Assembly (NCBI GenBank): GCA_947629135.1
Contig: CANRCN010000001.1
Span: 411-64,410, forward strand
Reading direction: 5' to 3'
Length of the DNA stretch: 64,000 bases
Source of the DNA: an uncultured Bacilli bacterium
GTDB lineage: Bacteria > Bacillota_I > Bacilli_A > RF39 > UBA660
The notes beneath the pieces are model-generated. The model was not told where the DNA came from. It saw nothing but the letters and a program-made list of their open reading frames with translations, and searched no databases. Below are positions 5,682-62,756 of the stretch, piece after piece. Made by a program: the position numbers and the translations under genes. Within the stretch, counting starts at the first letter, position 1; each line of letters begins with the position of its first letter.

Positions 5682-6152
5682 CTATTCAATATCAATATAG
5701 TATTCAATACTAGAAATTGTATCTCCAACAACGATAAATTCAAGATGTGTATTATCTAGAGTATAGGTATAAGCATTATCTCTTTTTTCATAGTCATTAC
5801 CATAGGTTTTAGTTAAATTTTCTAAACTATCTCCAATTTTAATACCTTCAGTAGTTTTAACAGAATCATCAGTTAAATAAATAGTATATATTTTATCTTT
5901 ATCACCATCAGGAGTAGTTGTTATTTCATAATGATCATATGTATAAGTTTTATCAACACCTTGTCCTGCACAACTAGGAACTTCTGCATACCGAACTTCT
6001 TTACCATATTTAGAAGTTGAAAATTCTTCTCCTAAAATAAAATTCTTATCATTATAAGTAAAACTATAGACTTTATTTTCTTCTTTTTTTACTTCACTAC
6101 ATCCTGTAATTAATATACCTATTAGTAATAGAATAATTAATTTTTTCATCAT
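5682..6152 (-). CDS. lipoprotein (lipobox LITGC), last gene of the minus-strand acylation operon
   Basis: Signal peptide MMKKLIILLLIGILITGC with lipobox Cys; AGGAGA RBS; start overlaps the upstream gene stop (ATGA). Confidence 0.6.
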   Translation of the reverse strand: MMKKLIILLLIGILITGCSEVKKEENKVYSFTYNDKNFILGEEFSTSKYGKEVRYAEVPSCAGQGVDKTYTYDHYEITTTPDGDKDKIYTIYLTDDSVKTTEGIKIGDSLENLTKTYGNDYEKRDNAYTYTLDNTHLEFIVVGDTISSIEYYIDIE

Positions 6153-7159
6153 TCATCTCCTTTATTTTTATTATACACGGATAATTTCTGATTGTAAATA
6201 TTACTTATATGATTATCTAATCTATAATCAGTTAAATTATAATTATTTTTCAAAATATCCCCAAAATATGTGGATAATTTTTCAGCACCATATAAATTTA
6301 AATGTAAACCACCATCATAGGTATCATGATTATAATCTATACCTATTTCTTGAGCTTTTTCTAGAAGATTATAATAATCAAGATTATATGTATTAGCATA
6401 TTCAATTACTTGATCATTATATTCAGAATACCAATAAGGATAAACACTTGGAGCTTTTATTAAAACTAGTTTAATATGATTATTTTCACAAAGTTGTCTT
6501 ATTTTATCTAAGTATGATATAACATTATCTTTAAAAGTATAACTTCCTAATATCTTTTTAGTTGGTAAATTAGTAACTGGTTTTATATTTTTATTCATTA
6601 AATATCCATTATAAGTAACATTATTATCTGTAAATAAATTTTTAAAATCTTCACTAGTTAAAGAAGAAAATCTTGAATGATATCTAACAATTGGAAATAT
6701 ATAATCAAATATCGATTCTTCTTCTAACATAGAATTGTTTATCATTTCTATTTTTTCTTGAGACCATTTCATTTTATCAAGTGTTAAATGATTATAAGCT
6801 TCACTTACAGGTTCATTATATCTTAAAGCATTAACATTTAAGACTACTACCTTAGGAATTTCATATTTTAAAGTTTCTTTTAAAATTCCATAAGATTGCC
6901 AAATTAATTGTTGACTAGTTCCTCTAACATATGATGTTATTCCATAATTCTTATACATTATAAGAGGAGAGAAATTAGCATAAACTTCACAATCTCCAAT
7001 AAATATTACTTCATGATTTTTTTCTTCTTTATAATACTCTTTTATCATATGTCCTTCAATTAAATTTGTTTGGTATTTTGGAGAGACTAATTTATTTAAG
7101 AAAATAAAACATAGTATAAAAACAATTATAATTATTAATATTTTAAAATATTTTTTCAT
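6149..7159 (-). CDS. membrane-anchored DltD/AlgX-like SGNH-fold protein, partner of the adjacent MBOAT
   Basis: N-terminal TM anchor, 'IFIGDCE' GDS-like block, C-terminal 'DGGLHLNLYG' block shared with the paralogues at 37641 and 43171; sits immediately downstream of an MBOAT gene. Confidence 0.5.
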   Translation of the reverse strand: MKKYFKILIIIIVFILCFIFLNKLVSPKYQTNLIEGHMIKEYYKEEKNHEVIFIGDCEVYANFSPLIMYKNYGITSYVRGTSQQLIWQSYGILKETLKYEIPKVVVLNVNALRYNEPVSEAYNHLTLDKMKWSQEKIEMINNSMLEEESIFDYIFPIVRYHSRFSSLTSEDFKNLFTDNNVTYNGYLMNKNIKPVTNLPTKKILGSYTFKDNVISYLDKIRQLCENNHIKLVLIKAPSVYPYWYSEYNDQVIEYANTYNLDYYNLLEKAQEIGIDYNHDTYDGGLHLNLYGAEKLSTYFGDILKNNYNLTDYRLDNHISNIYNQKLSVYNKNKGDE

Positions 7160-7167
7160 AATCCCTC

Positions 7168-8448
7168 CTAAAACTTACTATAGATAAAATCTTGAACATT
7201 AAAACCTAATCCATATACTCCAAATAGTAAGATTAAAAGTATCATACTTCCTAAAAAAATTAGTTTAACTTCATCAGATTTATTATAAAGATAAGTTTTT
7301 ATTTTTTCATGTTTAATATCAACAATAATTAAAATTATTAAGGTTATAATAAGAACGATTATATTTACTAAATCAAGACCTAACTTTAAAATATTATTAA
7401 ATAAATTTAAATAATTTAAATTAGTAAATATACTTCCTAACATTTTAAAGGATGTTAAAGTATCTGGATAAATAAAGAAAATCCAAAGTAAAGAAACTAT
7501 TACAAAGTTTAAAATAATTTTTAGAGTTTTATATTTATCATTAGGTTTTCCTTGAAAAGCAACGATTATTCCATGAAATAATCCCCAGAAAAAGTAATTA
7601 ATTCCATGCCAAAGTCCTGAGATAATAAAAGTTATAATAATATTTATTTTAGCTCTAATTTTACTACAATGATTTCCTCCAAGAGGGATATAAAGATAAT
7701 CTCTAAACCATGAAGAAAGACTTATATGCCATCTTCTCCAAAATTCTTTTAAATTACGTGATAGGTAAGGACTATCAAAGTTTTCAGCAAGTTCGATTCC
7801 AATCATTTTACTAAAACCAATTACAATATCAATTCCACCTGAAAAATCAGCATATAACTGGAAAGAGTAGAGTAGTAGTGCTAGTAATACGTAAGCTCCT
7901 TGATAATTTAAATTAGAAGTAATTGTCGTAACAATTAAAGCAATTCTTGATGCTATTACATATTTTTTAAATAATCCCCAAGATATTCTAATTAATCCGT
8001 TAAAAAGATTATCTTTTTTGAGTTTCTTCTTTTTATATAAAGTTTTACTTAAATCATTATATCTATTGATAGGGCCTATTATTAAATAAGGAAAATAGAA
8101 AACAAAAAGTAAATAATTTAAAAGATTTTTTTCGGGTTTAATTTTTCCTCTATAAACATCTATTAAATAGGCCAATACTTGAAATGTATAATAAGATATT
8201 CCTAAAGGAATTAAAATATTTTTATTATTAACTAAGTTAAAAAAATTATTAAAAGTTACAACCTTAAAAAAAACTAAGATAGAAACATTTAAAATAATAG
8301 TTCCTATAAATATTAGTTTTTTATGCTTATTTTTGTGATTAATAGCAGCTAAATATGTTGTTAAAGCTGATATTAAAATATAAATTAGATTAGAAAGTCC
8401 AAAAGAAGCAATTAAGATAATACTAAAAATTAAAATAATTATATTCAT
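7168..8448 (-). CDS. MBOAT-family membrane O-acyltransferase (DltB/AlgI/PatA-like)
   Basis: Polytopic protein with MBOAT His motif 'WRRWHISLSSWFRDYLYIPLGGN'; translationally coupled to the upstream gene. Confidence 0.85.
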   Translation of the reverse strand: MNIIILIFSIILIASFGLSNLIYILISALTTYLAAINHKNKHKKLIFIGTIILNVSILVFFKVVTFNNFFNLVNNKNILIPLGISYYTFQVLAYLIDVYRGKIKPEKNLLNYLLFVFYFPYLIIGPINRYNDLSKTLYKKKKLKKDNLFNGLIRISWGLFKKYVIASRIALIVTTITSNLNYQGAYVLLALLLYSFQLYADFSGGIDIVIGFSKMIGIELAENFDSPYLSRNLKEFWRRWHISLSSWFRDYLYIPLGGNHCSKIRAKINIIITFIISGLWHGINYFFWGLFHGIIVAFQGKPNDKYKTLKIILNFVIVSLLWIFFIYPDTLTSFKMLGSIFTNLNYLNLFNNILKLGLDLVNIIVLIITLIILIIVDIKHEKIKTYLYNKSDEVKLIFLGSMILLILLFGVYGLGFNVQDFIYSKF

Positions 8449-35130: not shown

Positions 35131-36373
<1,243 letters not shown>

Positions 36374-37521: not shown

Positions 37522-38600
37522 ATGAATAAAAAGTTAACTAATTGTAAACACGGGGGGGGGGTTATTCCACAGAAAAGTTCACTTCTAAAAAATATAAAAA
37601 TTATTGCTTTAAAATTTTAATATCTGGTATTTTTGCTTTTTTGATATTAAATGTTATTTTTAGTTTTTATTTTAATCCTCCAACTTCTGATAAGGAATAT
37701 GAAAAATCTTCTTTTTTAGTAACTCCCTTTAAATATGAACCAATGGAAAGGTTTACATATGCTCTTGAAGGACATGGTCATGGAAGAGTTAATAATGATG
37801 GATATATAAATGTAGAGGATTATGATTCTAATAAAGAAGTTAATATATTAATGGTAGGGTCATCACAGTTTGAAGCTTTTCAAGTTGATATTAAAAATTC
37901 TGTTACCTATAGATTAAATGAACTGTTGAAAAATAAGTTTGTTTATAATATAGGAGTATCAGGTAATGCATTTCCAGAAAGTATAACTAATATAGCCCCT
38001 GCTATTATTAAATATAAACCTACTGATTACATAATTTTAGAAATGTCAGATGTTAAATATTCAGATCAAGAACTTAGCAAAGTTCTCGAAGAAGAAGATA
38101 ATAAAAAAGATTCTGAAAGTTCTTCAGGTTCAAAATCAGTTAAAAATAACAATGTTATTAGAAAATTTTATAGAAATAGTTCATTTTTAAGATTGTTATG
38201 GAGAAAATTAGAAGAGTTAACCGATAATCGAGAGGCAAATTTACCTGAAGCAAAAGAAGAATTTAATGAAAAACTTACAGGAGAAGTTTTAAATAAAATA
38301 CGTACTATAGTTGAAAATAAAGTTAAAGTAATAATTGTATACCATCCTTCTGTTTCTTTAGAATCTGATGGTAATTTGATACTTTTAAATAATGAAAATG
38401 TAGAAAAATTTTCAAAGTTATGTACAGAAAATGGAATATATTTTCTTGATATGAGTGATAGATTTAGTGCAGAATATAAAAAAAATAATATTTTACCATA
38501 TGGATTTAGTAATACATCAGTAGGAAAAGGACATTTAAATAAATACGGACATGAAATGATAGCTGAAGAATTATATAAATTAATCAAGGAGGAAAAGTAG
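37522..38600 (+). pseudogene. DltD/AlgX-like SGNH-fold membrane protein (MBOAT partner) with a poly-G tract between the predicted start codon and the TM anchor; out of frame in this sequence (phase-OFF)
   Basis: ATG 37522 reads MNKKLTNCKHGGG into G10 and stops at 37620; the long ORF (37548 onward, track 37641..38600) is in the +2 frame and encodes the K-rich/TM anchor, 'MVGSSQ' and C-terminal 'GKGHLNKYGHEM' blocks; G11 or G8 would fuse them. Confidence 0.5.
37552..37561. repeat. poly-G homopolymer (G10)
   Basis: direct read; exceptional in ~25% GC DNA. Confidence 0.95.
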
Positions 38601-38601
38601 T

Positions 38602-39993
38602 ATGTCGTTTGCATCAATAGATTTTTTAATATTTTTTATAGTTGTAATATTGGGAACATTAATTATTCAAAAATTTTTCTCTAAAAGAGTGAAAGAAGTA
38701 TTCTTACTTATTGCAAGTTACTTTTTTTATGGATATTGGGATTGGAGATTTTGTTTCCTATTATTATTTGTAACCTTATCTTCGTATTTTACAGCAAAAT
38801 ATAAAGATAAAAAAGGAATATATATAATAGGAATAGTTATACCATTAATTGTACTAGGATTCTTTAAATATTTTAATTTCTTTTTGGAATCAGTATCAAG
38901 TATAATAGGTCATGATTTAGGAATATTAAATATAATTTTACCAGTTGGAATATCATTTTATACATTTCAAGCTTTAAGTTATGTAATTGATGTAAAAAGA
39001 GAAAAGATAGAAGTTGAAGATGACTTTATAAGATTAGCTTTATATTTAAGTTTCTTTCCACAACTTGTTGCGGGACCAATTGTAAGGGCAGCTGATTTCT
39101 TACCTCAATTAAAAGAAGAAAGAAAAGTAAGTTCAGAAAATTTTAAATATGGTATTCAGCTAATGGCATTTGGATTATTCAAGAAGATTGTAATAGCTGA
39201 TCATTTATCAGTTTTTGTAGATGATGTATTTAAAGTACCAGTAGCATTCCATTGGGCAACGATAGTTCTAGCCGTAATTGCTTATTCAATTCAAATATAT
39301 TTTGATTTTTCAGGATATTCTGATATAGCAATTGGATGTGCTAAATGTTTAGGATATGATTTTAATTCTAACTTTAATTTACCATATATTTCTCAAAATG
39401 TAACAGAATTTTGGAGAAGGTGGCATATAAGTCTATCAACATGGTTAAAAGAATATTTATATATTCCTCTAGGAGGAAATAGAAAAGGTAAAGTTAGACA
39501 ATATATCAATTTATTTATAACTATGTTACTTGGTGGATTATGGCATGGAGCAAGTTGGACATTTGTATTTTGGGGTGGTTTAAATGGATTAGCTTTGTGT
39601 ATAGATAAAATGATACCTAAGAAAAAAGAAAAGAATTTATTTGATAAGGTTATTGGTGTAATATTAACTTATACATTTATATGTTTTACATGGATATTCT
39701 TCAGGGCAGATAACTTTACAAATGCATGGGATATAATAAAAGGAATATTTACTTTACAAAAAGGGATAAGTCAACCTTTTGTATGGGCTTTTGTTGCAAT
39801 TATATTATTAGTTATATTTACAATAGGAGCAATTATAAAATCTCATAAGAATAAAGATAAATATGTAGATGGGTATTATCCAATAGTTAATTTAAATACT
39901 GTATTTGGATTAACAATATTCTTTGTTGTAATAGGATTAATTTTTTGTTTAGCTTTTACAGGCGAACAACCATTTGTATATTTTCAATTTTAA
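38602..39993 (+). CDS. MBOAT-family membrane O-acyltransferase (second copy)
   Basis: 'WRRWHISLSTWLKEYLYIPLGGN' MBOAT His motif; start 1 nt after the DltD-like stop. Confidence 0.85.
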   Translation: MSFASIDFLIFFIVVILGTLIIQKFFSKRVKEVFLLIASYFFYGYWDWRFCFLLLFVTLSSYFTAKYKDKKGIYIIGIVIPLIVLGFFKYFNFFLESVSSIIGHDLGILNIILPVGISFYTFQALSYVIDVKREKIEVEDDFIRLALYLSFFPQLVAGPIVRAADFLPQLKEERKVSSENFKYGIQLMAFGLFKKIVIADHLSVFVDDVFKVPVAFHWATIVLAVIAYSIQIYFDFSGYSDIAIGCAKCLGYDFNSNFNLPYISQNVTEFWRRWHISLSTWLKEYLYIPLGGNRKGKVRQYINLFITMLLGGLWHGASWTFVFWGGLNGLALCIDKMIPKKKEKNLFDKVIGVILTYTFICFTWIFFRADNFTNAWDIIKGIFTLQKGISQPFVWAFVAIILLVIFTIGAIIKSHKNKDKYVDGYYPIVNLNTVFGLTIFFVVIGLIFCLAFTGEQPFVYFQF

Positions 39994-40082
39994 ATATATG
40001 AAAAATATTTTAAATTATTATTAGAATTTAATTAGAAAAAATATAAATGAAATTTATTAAAAAATAGAAAGGTATTTAAAAT

Positions 40083-41099
40083 ATGAAAAAAAAGTTAACA
40101 ATTAGTCAATCTAGGGGGGGGCATAGTAAAAAAGAGTATAAAGGTATTGATATAACAAAATTTATTATGGCAATTCTAGTAATTGCTTGTCATGCAAATT
40201 TATATACCAATTATGATGGAACAATAGGAACAATCTATCTTTTGGTACTTAGTTGTGTTGTTCCATATTTCTTTATAACTAATGGTTTCTTTATGTATAA
40301 AGATGAAGAAACCTTTGAAAATAAACTTTGGGATAATCTAAAAAAAATTATTAAATTATATATAATTTGGAATATAATTTATTTACCTATTAGTATTTAT
40401 GATTATGCTGTAAATGGGTATTCTGTTATAAAAGCAATAATTCTTTATATTCGAGATTTTCTGTTTATAGGTGATCACTTTTTTTCTTGGCCACTTTGGT
40501 ATTTACTAGGATTTATATATGCCTTGATAGCATTAATTATATTAAAAAAATTAAAATTAAATGATAAAAAAATATTTATAATTACGATGTTAACCTATAT
40601 ATTTGCAAATGTAATGGAATATTTAACATCTATTGGTTCTAATAATATTGTTGTAAAATTATTTAGTTATGTCTTTGGTGATGGAAGAGTATTTACTGGA
40701 ATATTTTTAGTTACACTTGGAATACTTATAAAAAAATACAATGATAAAATTAAGATATCTAAAAAAATATTATTATTGCTAATTATAGTGTGCTTTGCAA
40801 TATCAGTTATAATTCCAAATAAGATAAGCGAAGTTGGATTATATATATTTCTATTTTTATTAGTCAAAGAACTTAATAATATTAAATTTAATACAATTAA
40901 CTTTAGAAGGTGTAGTACAATATTTTATTTTGTACACATGATTAATTTATTTATATATATGTTAATTGTTGGGATAGATAATACTTATGGTGTTTATGGG
41001 TTTCTAATAACAATAGTTGCTTGTATGGTAGAATCTATTATTATAATATTTATTCAAAATAAGTGGAATCCAAAAATTTTAAAGGAATTGTTTAATTAA
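40083..41099 (+). CDS. acyltransferase-3 (OatA/WecH-like) family membrane O-acyltransferase with in-frame poly-G (G8) at codons 11-13
   Basis: 'KGIDITKFIMAILVIACHA' acyl_transf_3 N-terminal motif, ~10 TM; G8 at 40114-40121 encodes Arg-Gly-Gly in frame (phase-ON). Confidence 0.6.
   Translation: MKKKLTISQSRGGHSKKEYKGIDITKFIMAILVIACHANLYTNYDGTIGTIYLLVLSCVVPYFFITNGFFMYKDEETFENKLWDNLKKIIKLYIIWNIIYLPISIYDYAVNGYSVIKAIILYIRDFLFIGDHFFSWPLWYLLGFIYALIALIILKKLKLNDKKIFIITMLTYIFANVMEYLTSIGSNNIVVKLFSYVFGDGRVFTGIFLVTLGILIKKYNDKIKISKKILLLLIIVCFAISVIIPNKISEVGLYIFLFLLVKELNNIKFNTINFRRCSTIFYFVHMINLFIYMLIVGIDNTYGVYGFLITIVACMVESIIIIFIQNKWNPKILKELFN
40114..40121. repeat. poly-G homopolymer (G8) within coding sequence
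   Basis: direct read. Confidence 0.95.
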
Positions 41100-41118: not shown

Positions 41119-42300
41119 GTGATAGAAATGATATATATATATGAAGCAAAAAGAAGTCCAATAGGGAAGTTTAAAAAAGGTTTTATAAATACTGATTGCA
41201 GTATGCTTGGAATGCAAGTTGCTAAAAGTATTATTGAAAATACGAAAATTGATGTAAACAAAATTGATAAAGTTATATTAGGAAATGTTTTATCGGCTGG
41301 TTTAGGACAAAATATTGCAAGACAAATATTAATAAATAGTGGAATACCTGATGATAAAACAGCTTATTCTATTAATATGGTTTGTGGAAGTGGAATGAAA
41401 GCTGTTCATGATGCTTTTAATGATATAAAATTAGGAAATGCTCATTGCATTTTAGCAGGTGGAGTTGAAAATATGAGTATGGCTCCATTATTAAAAGATA
41501 AGTACGATGATAATAAAGAGTTAAAGGATAGTATGTTATATGATGCTTTAACGGATGTATTTTCAAATGAGCATATGGGGATAACGGCTGAGAATGTTGC
41601 AGAAAAATATAATGTAACTAGAGAAGATCAAGATAAATTTGCATATGATTCACAACATAAAGTACAAACGGCAATTGAAAATAAAAAGTTTGATGATGAG
41701 ATAGTTCCAATAAAGACTTTTGAAGGAGAAGTAATAAGTTTAGATGAATTTCCAAGATTTAATACTGAAATGGAAAAACTATCAGCTTTAAAACCAGCTT
41801 TTAAAGAAAATGGAACAGTAACTGCTGGAAATGCTTCTGGAATTAATGATGGCTGTGCTTTGTTATTAATTGGAGATGAAACAATTAGTTTAAAACCTAA
41901 AGCTGAAATTATAGATTTTGCTGAAGCTGGATGTGATCCTAATTATATGGGAATGGGACCATTATATGCAATATCTAAATTATTAGAAAAAAATAATTTA
42001 AATATTAATGATATTGATTTATTTGAAATAAACGAAGCCTTTGCTTCTCAAAGTATAGCAGTTATAAGAGAATTATCTAAAAAATACAATATTAATTTAG
42101 AAGAATTTAACTCTAAAATTAATGTCAATGGTGGAGCAATTGCTTTAGGACACCCAGTTGGTGCATCAGGTGCAAGAATTATAACTACTTTAGTTCATGA
42201 AATGAAAAGAAGAAATTCAAAATATGGTGTAGCTTCACTTTGTATAGGTGGTGGTATGGGAATAGCTGTATTATTAAAAAATATGTGTGAGGAGGATTAA
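41119..42300 (+). CDS. acetyl-CoA C-acetyltransferase (thiolase II, PhaA/ThlA-like)
   Basis: Thiolase signatures: N-terminal 'EAKRSPIGKF', catalytic Cys 'NMVCGSGMKAV', C-terminal 'NVNGGAIALGHPVGASGARI' and 'SLCIGGGMG'. Confidence 0.85.
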   Translation: MIEMIYIYEAKRSPIGKFKKGFINTDCSMLGMQVAKSIIENTKIDVNKIDKVILGNVLSAGLGQNIARQILINSGIPDDKTAYSINMVCGSGMKAVHDAFNDIKLGNAHCILAGGVENMSMAPLLKDKYDDNKELKDSMLYDALTDVFSNEHMGITAENVAEKYNVTREDQDKFAYDSQHKVQTAIENKKFDDEIVPIKTFEGEVISLDEFPRFNTEMEKLSALKPAFKENGTVTAGNASGINDGCALLLIGDETISLKPKAEIIDFAEAGCDPNYMGMGPLYAISKLLEKNNLNINDIDLFEINEAFASQSIAVIRELSKKYNINLEEFNSKINVNGGAIALGHPVGASGARIITTLVHEMKRRNSKYGVASLCIGGGMGIAVLLKNMCEED

Positions 42301-42301
42301 T

Positions 42302-43015
42302 ATGTTAGAAGGAAAAATTGCAATAGTAACTGGAGCATCTCGTGGTATCGGATTAGAAATAGCAAAGTTGTTTACAAAAGAGGGAGCAAAAGTTATTGGT
42401 ACATATAATCATAATAAAACAGATATAGATGGTGTAGATTTTTATAAATTAGATGTTTCTAACAGAGAAGAAGTTAAAACATTTGTAGATACTATTATTA
42501 ACAAGTATAATAAAATAGATATTCTTGTTAATAATGCTGGAATAACAGCTGATGCATTAACTAAAAAAATGTCTGATGAAATGTTTGATAAGGTAATAAA
42601 TACTAATCTTACAGGAACCTATAATATAACTAAACTAATTGGTCCAATTATGCAAGATAATCATAGTGGTAGTATAATTAATATTACATCAATAGTTGGT
42701 ATATATGGAAATATTGGACAAGTAAATTATGCAGCTTCAAAAAGCGGTATTATAGGAATGACCCATACTTGGGCAAAAGAATTTGCTATGAAAGATGGAA
42801 ATGTTAGAGTTAATGCAATAGCACCAGGATATACAATGACAGAGATGCTTAAAACAGTTCCAGAAGAATTATTAGACAAGTTTAAAAGTATGACTTTATT
42901 GAAAAGATTAGCTGAACCTGAAGATATAGCTAATGCAGCATTATTTTTAGCAAGTGACATGGCTAGTTATATAACAGATGAAATATTAAATGTTAATGGT
43001 GGCATGAAATTATAA
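42302..43015 (+). CDS. SDR-family 3-oxoacyl reductase (FabG/PhaB-like acetoacetyl-CoA reductase)
   Basis: 'TGASRGIG' cofactor motif, 'NAG' and 'YAASK' catalytic motif; GAGGAGG RBS 6 nt before ATG 42302. Confidence 0.85.
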   Translation: MLEGKIAIVTGASRGIGLEIAKLFTKEGAKVIGTYNHNKTDIDGVDFYKLDVSNREEVKTFVDTIINKYNKIDILVNNAGITADALTKKMSDEMFDKVINTNLTGTYNITKLIGPIMQDNHSGSIINITSIVGIYGNIGQVNYAASKSGIIGMTHTWAKEFAMKDGNVRVNAIAPGYTMTEMLKTVPEELLDKFKSMTLLKRLAEPEDIANAALFLASDMASYITDEILNVNGGMKL

Positions 43016-43051: not shown

Positions 43052-44094
43052 GTGAAAAAGAATATAGAAAAAGTTAACAATAAGTCACCTCGGGGGGGGG
43101 GGCTTATAAAAAATATATAATAATATTTAAATTAATATTATCTTGCTTTATTGCATTTATAATATTAAATTTGTTTTGTATTTTTTATTATAATATACCA
43201 GTACATTCTACTTCTAAAGATGGTGCAACTGATTACGTTTGGGAACCAAACAAGTTTTATTCACGTTGGACTGAAGGCTTTGGATATGGAAGAACGAACA
43301 ATGAAGGTTATTATGATTATAAAAAATATAAAAAGAGCGATAATGTTGATATATTAGTTATGGGATCTTCACATATGGAAGCAGCTCAAATACAACAAAA
43401 TAAATCTACATCAGGATTGCTTGATAATATGTTAAAAGATTATTATGTTTATAATATAGGAATATCGGGTCATACATTTATAACCTGTGTTAGTAATCTT
43501 GAAGCTGCTATTACTAAATATAATCCAAATAAATATATTATTATTGAAACTAACACAGTTACTTTTTCAGATAGTGATTTGAACAATGCATTGAACAATT
43601 CAGTTGAAGAAATTCCTTCTTATGATGGAGGTGTAATTGGTATACTACAGCAAAATCAACTTTTAAGATTATTATATCATCAAGCAGAGTCTTTTCTTAA
43701 TTTAGAAAATGAAGGAGATATAATTCCAAATAGTCAAACTAACTTTGATACTAATTTTAACTTATTAAATCAACTTTTTATAAAAATGCAAGAAAAAGCA
43801 GAAAAAAATAATATTAAAATAATAATAATGTATCATCCAAGTACAACTTTGAATAAAGATGGAAGTTTAAATTTGTCAAGTGAAAATGAAAATATAGAAG
43901 AATTTTCGAAATTATGTAAAGAAAATGGAATATATTTTCTTGATATGAGTGATAGATTTAGAGAAGAATATGAAAAGAATTATATTCTACCATATGGATT
44001 TAGTAATACATCAGTAGGCACAGGTCATTTAAATAAATATGGACATGAAATGATTGCTGAAGAATTATATAAATTAATCAAGGAGGAAAAGTAG
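43052..44094 (+). pseudogene. second DltD/AlgX-like SGNH-fold paralogue, again with a poly-G tract between the predicted start (GTG 43052) and the TM anchor, out of frame in this sequence
   Basis: GTG 43052 reads VKKNIEKVNNKSPRGGG into G11 and stops at 43120; the long ORF (open from 43084, track 43171..44094) is in the +2 frame; the C-terminal 60 aa are near-identical to the 37641 paralogue; G12 or G9 would fuse them. Confidence 0.45.
43092..43102. repeat. poly-G homopolymer (G11)
   Basis: direct read. Confidence 0.95.
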
Positions 44095-52330: not shown

Positions 52331-52357
52331 TTATAATTGAAGTTAAGGTGAGTTTGT

Positions 52358-53338
52358 ATGAAAGAAGTAAAAAAAGAATATAAAGGTATAGACATAATGA
52401 AATTTTTATTAGCTATAGTTATTATAATTTATCATACTCGTTTATATACTGGTAATAATCATACTTTAAAAACGATTTATGATCTTTTGTTAAGTTCTGC
52501 TGTTCCTTTATTTTTTATAACAAGTGGATTTTTTGTATATGATAAATATAAACAAGAAGAAAGGATAACTAAGTTATTAAAGAAAAATATTAAATTATAT
52601 CTCATTTGGAATCTTATTTATCTTCCAATTGCTATATATGGAGATGTTATTAATAATTATTCAGTTGGAAAATCAATTTTGTTATATATACGTGAATTTT
52701 TATTCTTAGGAGAACATTATTTTAGTTGTCAAATTTGGTATTTATTGTCATTTATATATTCTTTAATAATATTATTGGTGTTAAAAAAATTAAAATTAAA
52801 TGATATAAAAATATTTATAATAACTATTTTAATATATGTTTTTGCAACGGTGATGGTATATTTAACTTCTAATAATTTTGATTATAAATTTGTTAAATTA
52901 TTTAGTAGTATTTTTTCAACAGGAAAAGTATTTTTAGGACCAGCTATAGTTACACTTGGAATGTTTATTAATAAGTATAAAGATAAGATAAAAATATCTA
53001 AAATTGTATTATTATTAATGATTGTTTTATGTACTGTTGTATCAATTATATTTCCAAATAAAATAAGTAGAATAATGCTTTATATATTTGTATTCTTGTT
53101 AGTTATGAATTTGAATAATATTAAATTTAATACTGTTAATTTTAGAAAGTGTAGCATTATATTTTATTTTATTCATATGATTAATTTGTTTATTTATATG
53201 TTAATAGTTGGTATAAATAATACATATGGAATATATAGTTTTATATTTACACTTATTACTTGCATAATAGAATCAGTTATTATAATAGCAATTCAAAATA
53301 AATGGAATCCTAAAGTGTTAAAAGAAATATTTAGTTGA
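52358..53338 (+). CDS. acyltransferase-3 family membrane O-acyltransferase, paralogue of 40083 lacking the poly-G N-terminal extension
   Basis: 'KGIDIMKFLLAIVIIIYHT' motif; near-identical C-terminus ('NIKFNTVNFRKCSIIFYFIHMINLFIYMLIVGINNTYG'). Confidence 0.6.
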   Translation: MKEVKKEYKGIDIMKFLLAIVIIIYHTRLYTGNNHTLKTIYDLLLSSAVPLFFITSGFFVYDKYKQEERITKLLKKNIKLYLIWNLIYLPIAIYGDVINNYSVGKSILLYIREFLFLGEHYFSCQIWYLLSFIYSLIILLVLKKLKLNDIKIFIITILIYVFATVMVYLTSNNFDYKFVKLFSSIFSTGKVFLGPAIVTLGMFINKYKDKIKISKIVLLLMIVLCTVVSIIFPNKISRIMLYIFVFLLVMNLNNIKFNTVNFRKCSIIFYFIHMINLFIYMLIVGINNTYGIYSFIFTLITCIIESVIIIAIQNKWNPKVLKEIFS

Positions 53339-59101: not shown

Positions 59102-60835
59102 TTGGCTACAAAATTTGAAAGAATTTACAATGATATTAAAATCGAATTAAAAGAGATTAAGGATAATAACAAATATAATAATATTTCTCAAGCATATGGT
59201 CATTTTATTTTAAAAATGCTATTTGATTTAACTGATGAAGAAGCATACGATTGCTGCACGGATGGTTCTAATGATAATGGTATAGATGCAATATATATTG
59301 AGCCAGATAAAAGAGTACACTTTTTTCAATTTAAATTTCCAGAAACTGAGAAAAATATCTCGAAAGGTGTATCAGAAGATGAAATATTAAAATTGTGTCA
59401 TGGTGTTCAATCGTTTGTTTCACCAGAAGAAATTTTTAATGAAAATATTTGGAATGATTTATTGAAAGATAAAAGGCAGGAATTTTTAGCTGCTGATTTA
59501 TGTGATATAAAATTGTGGATAGTAAGGTATTCTAATCAGGAAATTAGTAATTCAGCGGAATCTATTATTAATAATTATATGATCGGATACAAAAGAGAGA
59601 CTGGTAATAAAATCGATAAAGAAATTTTTTTAGCAATGGAATGCTTGAATTTATATGAATCAAGAGCTAAAAACATTTGGCCTGATTTTACATTGCCTTA
59701 TGTAAAATCTTTGACTCCATTTAATGATGAAAAAACTAGTATTGCGAGTGCATATGTTTCTTTAAATAGCATATACAATACATTTAGTAAAATTCAAAAT
59801 ACAGTGTTTGAAGGAAATGTAAGATTTTTAAATCCAAATTCTAAAATAAACGATGGAATTAGGGAAACTATATTAAATGTACCTGAGAACTTCCATTTGT
59901 TAAATAATGGAATAACTATTGTATGTAATGAATGTTTAGATATAAATGCAAAATCATATTATAATGTTAAGTGTGGCTCAATTATTAATGGAGCCCAAAC
60001 TGTCGGAACTATAATAAATACTTTATCATCATTAACTGAAGAACAAAGATGTGTATATGAGAAATCTTTTGTATTTGTTAAAATTGTTTCTTTTAATAAA
60101 GATACTAAATTAATAAATGACATGGTATATACTTTAAATACCCAAAATCAAATGAAAAATTCTTATACTTTAGCTAATGATATGATAGTAAAAAATTTAC
60201 AAACAAAAATAAATAAGGAAACTCCTTATTTTCTTGAAGTTAAAAATAACGAATATAATTATTGTAAAAGTAGTTATAAATCGTTTGATAAACTATCTAA
60301 AAACAAAATTGATATTGAAACATTTATTCAAGTTTATACTACATTTTATAATATAAATGATATGGCAGCATTATCTAAAAATAATAAAGCAATTTTATTT
60401 ATGAATGAAAACATACAAAAAATTATTAATGAATTAAAATATGAAGAATCTTTATTATCCTATAAAGTATATGTGCAATTAATGAATATAATAAAAGAAT
60501 ATAGGGCTTATAGAAAAAAATCAGAGAAAATTGAAATATTAAATATTTTAGATATAGATGAAAATGATATAGATGAATATAGATATTTAAATACTGGCAA
60601 TTTTATCATATTATATGCTTTGGGAATAATTTATTGTGAAAAGGGATTAGATCCAGAAAAGAATATGATTCCTGTTATTAAAGCTTTAAGATTATTATTT
60701 AAAAAAGAAAAAAATATTTCTAATGCAACAAGAATAAAAGAAACCTTTGATAGAGTTGAACGTTTTGTTAAAAAATTTAAAATAGATAATGATATTATAG
60801 TTGTGCCAACAAAAGTGGTACTATCGAAATTATAG
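59102..60835 (+). CDS. AIPR-family abortive infection (phage resistance) protein
   Basis: 577 aa; AIPR hallmark 'SIINGAQTVGTIIN' (I-N-G-a-Q-T) mid-protein and N-terminal nuclease-like region with 'DGSNDNGIDAIYIE'. Confidence 0.6.
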   Translation: MATKFERIYNDIKIELKEIKDNNKYNNISQAYGHFILKMLFDLTDEEAYDCCTDGSNDNGIDAIYIEPDKRVHFFQFKFPETEKNISKGVSEDEILKLCHGVQSFVSPEEIFNENIWNDLLKDKRQEFLAADLCDIKLWIVRYSNQEISNSAESIINNYMIGYKRETGNKIDKEIFLAMECLNLYESRAKNIWPDFTLPYVKSLTPFNDEKTSIASAYVSLNSIYNTFSKIQNTVFEGNVRFLNPNSKINDGIRETILNVPENFHLLNNGITIVCNECLDINAKSYYNVKCGSIINGAQTVGTIINTLSSLTEEQRCVYEKSFVFVKIVSFNKDTKLINDMVYTLNTQNQMKNSYTLANDMIVKNLQTKINKETPYFLEVKNNEYNYCKSSYKSFDKLSKNKIDIETFIQVYTTFYNINDMAALSKNNKAILFMNENIQKIINELKYEESLLSYKVYVQLMNIIKEYRAYRKKSEKIEILNILDIDENDIDEYRYLNTGNFIILYALGIIYCEKGLDPEKNMIPVIKALRLLFKKEKNISNATRIKETFDRVERFVKKFKIDNDIIVVPTKVVLSKL

Positions 60836-60867
60836 TTTAGTAAAAAATTATAAATAAGTGTTTGAAA

Positions 60868-60890
60868 GGGAATAAAAATTCTCTTTTTTT
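60868..60890 (+). terminator. possible Rho-independent terminator after the AIPR gene
   Basis: stem 'gggaat'/'attctc' (one G-U), AAAA loop, T7. Confidence 0.35.
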
Positions 60891-61169
60891 ATACTTTTTA
60901 GAAAAAATTTAAACCATTAAGATAGTTTTTAAATGGTATTAGAGCTATTACCTAACAAGAAAATGAGTAGTCTTTTAATCAAATATAAACATAAAATTTA
61001 TGGAGGTGAATTTTAAAAAATGAATATAAAAGAAACTTTCGATAATGATAAAAATTTGGTTGATTTGATAGAAGAATATTTAAAAATAATGCTATTTAAA
61101 GAGAGAGACTCCTAGTTATGAATTATAGTGAATATACTTGTGAAGTTATGCATTTAAAAGGAGTTGTAA

Positions 61170-62756
61170 GTGTATAGCAATATAATACAATCGCCAAATT
61201 TTTATAGAGTAGGTTTATATATAAGATTATCAGAAAGTGATGAAGGTAAGTCTTATGAATCAGAAAGTGAAAGTATTATTAATCAAAGAAATTTATTAAT
61301 GAGTTTTGTAAAGCAAAATGAATTTACCTTTGTTGATGAGTATATTGATGATGGATTTACTGGTACTAATTTTGATAGACCTGGCTTTAAAAGATTACTT
61401 GAAGATATTGAAAACGGAAGAATAAATTGTGTCATAACAAAGGATTTATCTAGACTTGGTAGAAATTATGTTACTTGTGGTTATTATGTAGATGAATATT
61501 TTCTTCTAAAAAAAGTTAGATATATTGCTGTACTTGATCAAGTAGATACTTTTTTAAATAATGTTGGTAACGAAATGATACCTTTTAAATCAGTATTTAA
61601 TGATATGACAAGTAGAGATAATTCTAAAAAGATACGTTCTATTTTAAGAAATAAAAAAGAGGATGGAAAATTTATTGGAAGTGAACCTAGCTTTGGTTAT
61701 ATGCGAGATCCAGAAGATAAAGGACATTTATTACCAAATCCCGAAACTGCTTTTATTGTTAAAAAAATATTTGAAATGGCAAATAGTGGTATAAGTGTTA
61801 GTGATATTGCAAGTTATCTTAATGATTGTAAATATCCAACACCAAGTTTATACAAAAAGAAAGAAGGCTCAAAGCAAAAAATTAATCCAATATGGACTGT
61901 TTCATCAGTAAAAAAAATACTAAGAAATCAAATGTATACAGGTGATATGGTACAAAATGTCCAAACTAAAATATCATACAAATCTCAAAAGAAAGTTGCT
62001 CTTAATAAAGAAGCATGGATAATTGTTCCAGATACTCATGAACCATTAGTTAGTAAAGAAATATTTAATAAAGTTCAAAGTAATGTTAAAAGAAAGCAGA
62101 AAACACAAACTGATAGAGAAAAAAGATTATTTGAAAATCTTATTTATTGTCAGGAATGTGGTAATACTTTAACAGTTACTTACCGAAAAAATCATGATTA
62201 TTGGACTGTTAATTGTAATAGATATTCAAGAGATCCAAGAAGACATTTATGTTATCCTCATTTTATGCCTTATGATAAATTAGAAGAAGCACTATTAAGT
62301 ACTATTAAAAGTACTTGTAAGAAATATTTGGATGAGATTGATGTTAAATCGTTAGCACAGCTTATAAATGATAAAAACATTTCTAAAGAAAGTTCAACAG
62401 AAGAAATTAATTTTTTAAATAAAAAAATTAAAGAATACAATACTAAAATTGATATGCTATATGATGATAAATTTAAAGGTAATATTTCGGAAGATACTTA
62501 TAAAAGATTATCAAGAGAAACAGAAATATTATTAAATCAATCTAAATCTAGAATAGAAGAATTACAAAAAGTAGATAAAAAGAAAAAAGAATCTACAAAG
62601 GAAGTGCAAAACTATGAAGAAAAGATTAAGAAATTAATAAATCTTGATAATCCAAGTAGAGAATTATTACAATCCATTATTGACAAGATAGTAATTGATA
62701 AAGATAGAAACATTGAAATTTTATATAAATTTAGTTTATTAAATGACTTTGATTAA
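61170..62756 (+). CDS. large serine recombinase (resolvase/invertase catalytic domain + recombinase domain + zinc ribbon + coiled coil)
   Basis: N-terminal 'RVGLYIRLSESDEG' with the catalytic Ser, 'DLSRLGRN' motif, zinc-ribbon 'CQECGNT...C..C', long C-terminal coiled coil; AAAGGAG RBS 6 nt before GTG 61170. Confidence 0.85.
   Translation: MYSNIIQSPNFYRVGLYIRLSESDEGKSYESESESIINQRNLLMSFVKQNEFTFVDEYIDDGFTGTNFDRPGFKRLLEDIENGRINCVITKDLSRLGRNYVTCGYYVDEYFLLKKVRYIAVLDQVDTFLNNVGNEMIPFKSVFNDMTSRDNSKKIRSILRNKKEDGKFIGSEPSFGYMRDPEDKGHLLPNPETAFIVKKIFEMANSGISVSDIASYLNDCKYPTPSLYKKKEGSKQKINPIWTVSSVKKILRNQMYTGDMVQNVQTKISYKSQKKVALNKEAWIIVPDTHEPLVSKEIFNKVQSNVKRKQKTQTDREKRLFENLIYCQECGNTLTVTYRKNHDYWTVNCNRYSRDPRRHLCYPHFMPYDKLEEALLSTIKSTCKKYLDEIDVKSLAQLINDKNISKESSTEEINFLNKKIKEYNTKIDMLYDDKFKGNISEDTYKRLSRETEILLNQSKSRIEELQKVDKKKKESTKEVQNYEEKIKKLINLDNPSRELLQSIIDKIVIDKDRNIEILYKFSLLNDFD

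Follow-up and report, generated by a model that had tools for sequence, protein, structure and literature searches.

Gene content of the capsule locus

The window, by which is meant the whole 64-kb stretch of DNA analysed here, holds on the evidence of its gene content a capsule (cps) locus of the Gram-positive, Wzy-dependent type. Wzz/CpsC, the CpsD kinase and the CpsB phosphatase are encoded here along with a CapD-like dehydratase, an aminotransferase and the initiating sugar transferase, as are several GT1/GT2 enzymes, a pyruvyl transferase, a flippase, ATP-grasp enzymes and UDP-glucose dehydrogenase. The nucleotide tracts with which this work is concerned sit at the 3' 'decoration' end of the locus, where the genes follow one another in the order gene A, MBOAT, AT3 (gene B), thiolase, SDR and gene C, all on the + strand.

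Gene A (37522-38600, with an ATG at 37522) encodes an SGNH/GDSL-like protein with a transmembrane anchor (the NCBIfam SGNH/GDSL match is weak) and carries a run of ten G residues (G10, 37552-37561) that leaves it phase OFF, the ON lengths being G8 and G11 (358-359 aa). The MBOAT gene (38602-39993), which starts 2 nt past gene A, encodes an AlgI/DltB-like membrane O-acyltransferase (PF03062, 125 bits, with a DltB-like match in addition). It is followed by the AT3 (Acyl_transf_3) membrane acyltransferase gene (40083-41099) and, at 41119-43015, by an acetyl-CoA C-acetyltransferase (thiolase) and a 3-oxoacyl/acetoacetyl-CoA reductase (SDR), both assigned from family matches. Gene C (43052-44094, with a GTG at 43052), a paralogue of gene A at 45% identity, is likewise SGNH/GDSL-like and phase OFF; its tract is G11 (43092-43102) and it would be ON at G9 or G12 (346-347 aa). 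In both genes A and C the leader gives the sole start codon 5' of the membrane anchor, and the existing annotation, which places both starts at internal TTG codons, thereby deprives the gene C product (NCBI, P0057) of its anchor.

These two poly-G tracts were overlooked in a first-pass annotation of the same DNA, as was a dinucleotide repeat, (AT)17-19, at 35477-35514 (+ strand) inside an FrhB/FdhB-like Fe-S gene (35131-36373) that is split into two frames. The orthologue of this gene on a related contig (L002) is intact and contains, at the homologous codon, a G10 tract (L002 1498-1507), that is, the same site with a different repeat unit. The (AT)n repeat is thus a candidate for a fourth switch in the locus.

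The thiolase and reductase genes stay next to AT3 even where the gene order differs, being arranged as AT3-thiolase-SDR in the window versus thiolase-SDR-AT3 in the related contigs L002-L004, L009 and L021 (L002 6096-7980; L021 43-1927). Because of this adjacency, the acyltransferase may transfer a 3-hydroxybutyryl rather than an acetyl group. Elsewhere in the window, and outside the cps locus, another MBOAT gene, neighboured by a weak GDSL-like gene (6149-8448, - strand), has no repeat tract, and at the 3' end of the window lie an AIPR-family (abortive-infection-like) gene and a large serine recombinase (59102-62756) that may represent a mobile or defence element.

The G8 tract and N-terminal leader of AT3

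From position 40083 the AT3 gene reads ATG AAA AAA AAG TTA ACA ATT AGT CAA TCT AGG GGG GGG CAT AGT AAA AAA GAG TAT AAA GGT, and includes a G8 tract (40114-40121) that lies, as the first-pass annotation had it, in codons 11-13 (AGG GGG GGG, Arg-Gly-Gly). At this length the gene is in phase, the claim that it is currently ON being borne out by an open reading frame of 338 aa that matches PF01757 almost from end to end (59 bits against a cut-off of 31, profile positions 2-322 of 326). A histidine in the first transmembrane segment (H37, ..IACHAN..) aligns with a column of invariant histidine across 13 homologues, and is presumably the catalytic TM1 histidine of the AT3 family. A PDB sequence search with the AT3 protein detected no solved structure.

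The tract is situated within an N-terminal leader, MKKKLTISQSRGGHSK (40083-40130), that precedes the conserved KKEYKGIDI sequence and provides the sole usable start codon. A Shine-Dalgarno-like GAAAGG (40067-40072) is located 10 nt 5' of the ATG at 40083, and the same element, as AGAAAGG, is also found 5' of the other leaders. The first-pass annotation had proposed that use of a downstream start, with a dispensable extension, would speak against a switch, and no usable in-frame start was found: the next in-frame ATG (M29, 40167) lies within TM1 and has no Shine-Dalgarno sequence, the nearest similar sequence being 21 nt upstream, and it was rejected as a rescue start on these grounds. Genetic code 4, considered for these AT-rich contigs, was also rejected, since the reading frames read through under table 11. 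When tract length was varied in simulation, full-length AT3 was obtained at G5, G8 and G11, a product of 14 aa at G9 and one of 23 aa at G7; the earlier figure of about 15 residues after a one-base slip is consequently right for a +1 slip and wrong for a -1 slip.

Exact-product look-ups for other assemblies of the window species, made with the full AT3, the MBOAT, the SDR with two alternative starts and an 'OFF' AT3 starting at M29, matched none, and an exact look-up of the AT3 paralogue described below (P0004) gave only contigs of 1.3-2.6 kb, none of which reaches the tract. A run of eight A residues (A8, 40086-40093) immediately follows the ATG of the leader; A8 runs are common, with 26 in the window.

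Long G runs in the window

The window has a GC content of 23.7% and a G content of 14.9%, from which the number of G runs of at least 8 nt expected in 64 kb is between 0.013 (mononucleotide model) and 0.04 (first-order Markov model), against the three that are observed, namely the G10, G8 and G11 tracts of genes A, B and C. G runs of 6 or 7 are absent from the 64-kb window, as are C runs of 5 or more. All three tracts, furthermore, belong to acyl-modification genes, lie on the coding strand no later than codon 14, and fall in a span of approximately 5.6-6 kb. A chance origin of the three runs is ruled out, and repeats selected as contingency loci typically show the bimodal lengths and 5' placement seen here.

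Tract length in related contigs

The relatives available for comparison are MAGs and assemblies apparently derived from one gut study. A scan of GTDB genomes gave a single relative (L001, 78% amino acid identity), and a protein-based scan of JGI metagenomes for AT3 relatives found none. Most of the relatives have a tract at the leader position, and its state varies among the orthologues. The gene is OFF at G9 in L001, at G11 in L005 and at G10 in L006, and ON at G9 in L020 (339 aa, P0181) and at G10 in L021 (P0177). An interrupted tract (G6AG3) in L009 and a decayed one, AGGGTTAG, in L002-L004 lock the gene ON, although L002 and L004 are 99% identical to L021 with its G10. L022 has two tandem copies of AT3, one with G8, which is ON, and one with G9, which is shifted relative to the frame of the first copy (the contig ends here).

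The most direct comparison is that of L020 with L005, which come from different samples and align over 6,794 nt with no mismatches and one gap, this gap being the tract itself (G9, ON, versus G11, OFF). The tract is G10 in L006, which matches without a difference over about 1 kb and whose contig breaks 3 nt upstream of the tract; these G9, G10 and G11 contigs are short-read assemblies with about 6x coverage, and homopolymer miscalls could contribute to the differences. The proposal of the first-pass annotation that the leader is switchable and that a one-base slip truncates the protein thus has strong, if indirect, support, in that orthologous tracts vary in length, contigs identical but for the tract differ in ON/OFF state and there is no usable downstream start.

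In L001 (6001-6987) the gene is OFF not only on account of its G9 but also through an in-frame TAA (GIF*VT), and its upstream flank consists of about 850 nt of degenerate sequence, which suggests that this orthologue is undergoing pseudogenisation; some of the copies with a tract are thus in plain decay. Related cps loci also contain mid-gene G10 tracts (L002 4463-4472; L005 3927-3936 and 1759-1768; L003 3846-3855), carried by genes for TupA-like ATP-grasp, hexapeptide acetyltransferase and SGNH-like proteins, and in the TupA-like genes of L002 and L005 the tract is at the same position. Poly-G tracts seem to be in wide use in the capsule loci of this lineage.

A DNA module shared by the three leaders

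Directly 5' of the Gn tract, the leaders of genes A, B and C have the sequence AAAGTTAAC-N5-GTMA-N4-5 in common, although gene B has no homology to the other two. In AT3 this module takes the form AAAGTTAAC-N5-GTCAAT (40091-40110, + strand) and ends 3 nt before the tract, and its counterparts are at 37530-37549 and 43070-43089. With at most one mismatch allowed, the window contains three matches only, all of them at the tracts. The module, which can be written out as AAAGTT(A/G)AC-N5-GT(C/T/A)(A/G)AC, is also found in L001 (5986-6014) and twice in L022 (approximately 513-542 and 1550-1580). It is read as K-L-T in genes A and B and as K-V-N in gene C and L001; these differing frames indicate that it is conserved at the level of DNA. 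An Rfam search gave no family at any of the leaders, and an explanation in terms of a known riboswitch or small RNA was dropped.

The paralogue at 52358 and the origin of the leader

A second AT3 gene in the window (52358-53338, + strand) begins MKEVKKEYKGIDI and is 63% identical to the first from KKEYKGIDI on; it lacks the tract, as had been noted in the first-pass annotation, and is constitutively in frame. It starts 4 residues 5' of the conserved core, the range for the paralogue and more distant homologues being 1-8 residues before the K-K-x-Y-x-x-I-D motif. Because the paralogue works from a start so close to the core, the leader has no evident enzymatic role and looks dispensable for catalysis.

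How AT3 came by its leader is a separate matter, on which it had been suggested that a switchable leader was grafted onto one of the two copies. On this account leader and tract would have been copied recently onto the gene at 40083 from a neighbouring gene rather than inherited, an account that has some points in its favour. The occurrence of one DNA module, in different reading frames, in AT3 and in the non-homologous genes A and C implies that the module moved between genes at some time; a leader of this kind is missing from more distant AT3 and SGNH family members; and L021 and L004, which are 99.1% identical overall, differ mainly in the leader, where their differences are concentrated. 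Against a recent graft, a tract is found at the same position in orthologues from at least five related lineages, and in a neighbour-joining tree of AT3 cores the window paralogue groups with all other tract-bearing genes to the exclusion of L022, which itself has the tract (bootstrap values of 80% and 85% at the two relevant nodes). Furthermore, both of the tandem copies in L022 have the leader, and upstream of the ATG of the paralogue there is a possible leader remnant, AAGTTAAG (52340-52347, + strand), which retains 7 of 8 positions of the module and overlaps the Shine-Dalgarno sequence of the paralogue. The tree position of L022, its tandem leaders and the possible remnant make loss from the paralogue more parsimonious than a graft, and we consider that the leader with its tract is probably ancestral and was lost by the paralogue, a recent graft being rather unlikely. 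The notion of the leader as an add-on thus stands, given its absence from distant family members and the module common to two non-homologous neighbours, and it is the proposed polarity that is probably wrong.

A proposed phase-variation switch in AT3

Taken together, the observations on tract frequency, placement and length argue with good confidence that the G8 tract serves as a functional slipped-strand phase-variation (contingency) switch of AT3. In the proposed mechanism, slipped-strand mispairing during replication would add G residues to the tract or remove them and, as the sole usable start (the ATG at 40083, served by the GAAAGG ribosome-binding site) is upstream of the tract, tract length would set the reading frame. 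Ribosomes would enter the acyltransferase frame at G8 or G11 (ON) and would otherwise stop after 14 or 23 codons (OFF), with the 15-residue leader acting as the carrier of the switch. The two SGNH-like genes (G10 and G11, both OFF) and the (AT)n-containing Fe-S gene would be switched likewise. If genes A, B and C vary independently, perhaps along with the (AT)n gene, a population could contain up to 8-16 combinations of decorations, and a clonal population could display several of these acyl patterns (acetyl, or 3-hydroxybutyryl) on its surface polysaccharide. That the G8 tract of the window switches at a useful rate is inferred, as are the group that is transferred, the molecule that receives it and the role of phage or host immunity in selection.

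An improbable alternative is that the tract is fixed or neutral and the gene effectively always ON, G8 being too short or too well repaired for meaningful switching. G8 is indeed at the low end of the lengths regarded as phase variable and, as the shortest of the tracts seen here, should be the least mutable; the G6AG3 of L009 and the G3 of L002 show, moreover, that lineages can lock the gene ON. A fixed tract is difficult to reconcile with three long G runs where 0.04 would be expected and with the lack of G6 and G7 runs, with the out-of-frame state of two of the three tracts, and with an orthologue that differs between samples in tract length only.

Still less probable is a tuning role, in which slippage by RNA polymerase or ribosomal frameshifting would partly restore the frame and the 'OFF' state would be leaky. 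Long homopolymers can cause transcriptional slippage, although mostly where they consist of A or T, and two of the three genes have tracts of OFF length and yet retain intact downstream reading frames. However, intact OFF-phase frames are exactly what reversible switching at the DNA level predicts, differences of length in the DNA are directly observed, and neither a frameshift-stimulating structure nor an Rfam match was found. That the tract or its length is an artefact of sequencing or assembly, as might be feared of an error-prone homopolymer in a metagenome assembly, is scarcely credible given the clean flanks, the reading frame that is exactly in phase and the fact that independent assemblies, representing at least eight samples and three assemblers or sources, show tracts in this position.

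Comparison with known phase-variable systems

Poly-G contingency loci are textbook biology in Campylobacter, Neisseria and Haemophilus, and to our knowledge they are hardly documented in uncultured low-GC gut Firmicutes or Bacilli. With the slipped-strand reading of the G8 tract, the decoration end of this cps locus would hold at least four independent proposed switches, and among public metagenome assemblies one and the same strain is already represented by an ON and an OFF allele. The annotation of MAGs in this lineage will accordingly miscall phase-OFF genes as truncated genes or pseudogenes. Within a population of these commensals the capsule is probably not uniformly acylated, a point of relevance to escape from phage and from immunity.

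Standalone AT3 O-acetyltransferases of surface polysaccharides (Oac-type) resemble the window AT3 in being multi-pass proteins of about 330 aa that consist of PF01757 only and are encoded in a polysaccharide locus; unlike these, the window AT3 is linked to a thiolase and a reductase, the arrangement that suggests the possible 3-hydroxybutyryl donor.

The closest likeness in the tracts themselves is with the capsule poly-G/C genes of Campylobacter jejuni (the MeOPN transferase genes cj1421c and cj1422c and the methyltransferase gene cj1426c), where, as in the window, G tracts of about 8-11 nt occur inside genes against a very AT-rich genomic background (PMC8355987). Indel rates measured for such poly-G capsule-modification genes of C. 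jejuni are 1e-4 to 1.6e-3 per division (PMC8355987). In both cases the tracts cluster in non-essential capsule-modification genes, whose independent ON/OFF frameshifts generate combinatorial 'phasotypes' (PMC8355987), switching in the window being deduced from sequence. Unlike C. jejuni, the window belongs to an uncultured low-GC Bacilli MAG whose CpsBCD/Wzy locus is of the Gram-positive type and whose enzymes are AT3 and SGNH-like, and its tracts lie in a dedicated N-terminal leader with a conserved upstream DNA module. A further parallel is oafA of Haemophilus influenzae, described in PMC2651432 (citing Fox et al. 2005) as a phase-variable LPS O-acetylase. Going by that description, oafA and the window AT3 are both membrane acyltransferases that act on a surface glycan and have the repeat inside the open reading frame; oafA differs in having a tetranucleotide GCAA repeat in mid-gene and LPS as its target, as opposed to the 5' homopolymer and capsule of the window (PMC2651432).

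The module upstream of terminators

When metagenome contigs were scanned for the pattern of the module, seven matches were found in AT-rich contigs (25-35% GC; L010, L012, L013, L015, L016, L017 and L019). Three matches in high-GC contigs (L011, L014 and L018) were discarded as probably due to chance; chance was set aside as an explanation of the seven AT-rich matches, which share a Shine-Dalgarno/ATG context and a downstream architecture beyond anything in the search pattern. Rather than being joined to a gene, the leader in these AT-rich loci forms a short upstream reading frame (uORF), followed 45-95 nt further on by a strong hairpin with a T-run (z = -3.2 to -8.3), and 3' of the hairpin by a separately initiated, large surface protein with a transmembrane anchor. 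The surface proteins of L015 and L017 share 44% identity over 287 aa, and neither gave a match in Pfam or NCBIfam. The leader peptide of L015, MRTKQLTKCKFGGG, is similar to that of gene A, MNKKLTNCKHGGG. In four of the loci (L013 8740-8900; L015 6500-6750, - strand; L016 2112-2300; L017 727-900), exactly one of the three tract phases takes the uORF into or through the hairpin, while in the other two phases it stops well upstream.

These four loci, and only these, are reminiscent of pil1 of Streptococcus gallolyticus, which is controlled by leader-peptide/terminator attenuation with a GCAGA repeat in a short leader reading frame (PMC3894217); in both, the repeat sets the length of the leader, and only the long form reaches the terminator hairpin before the surface-protein gene (PMC3894217). 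They differ from pil1 in that poly-G takes the place of GCAGA. Attenuation of this kind plays no part at the window genes, where leader and enzyme form one continuous reading frame and no terminator lies between. Scans for consensus promoters and terminators did no better than chance on DNA so rich in AT, and their results were set aside.

These matches permit a broader reading of the leader, which we put forward tentatively and hold to be doubtful, as a portable phase-variation cassette consisting of a Shine-Dalgarno sequence, a start codon, about 10 arbitrary codons, AAAGTTAAC-N5-GTYRAC-N3-5 and poly-G. Such a cassette would be conserved across AT-rich gut Bacilli as DNA and not as peptide, and its GTTAAC/GTCAAC repeat would have a function of its own. 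It would operate in two modes, an assignment that is equally speculative, being fused to enzyme reading frames in genes A, B and C, L001 and L022, and forming a uORF that runs into a terminator in L013, L015, L016 and L017. If this cassette reading is true, the GTTAAC/GTCAAC direct repeat could promote slippage, recombinational spread or homogenisation of the switches. What could prove new in these results is the conserved, portable leader module, which also provides a simple sequence handle by which more switches might be found in metagenomes. In the run equivalent to the A8 of the AT3 leader, L010 has A8 and L013 has A7, a difference that shifts the frame of the leader.
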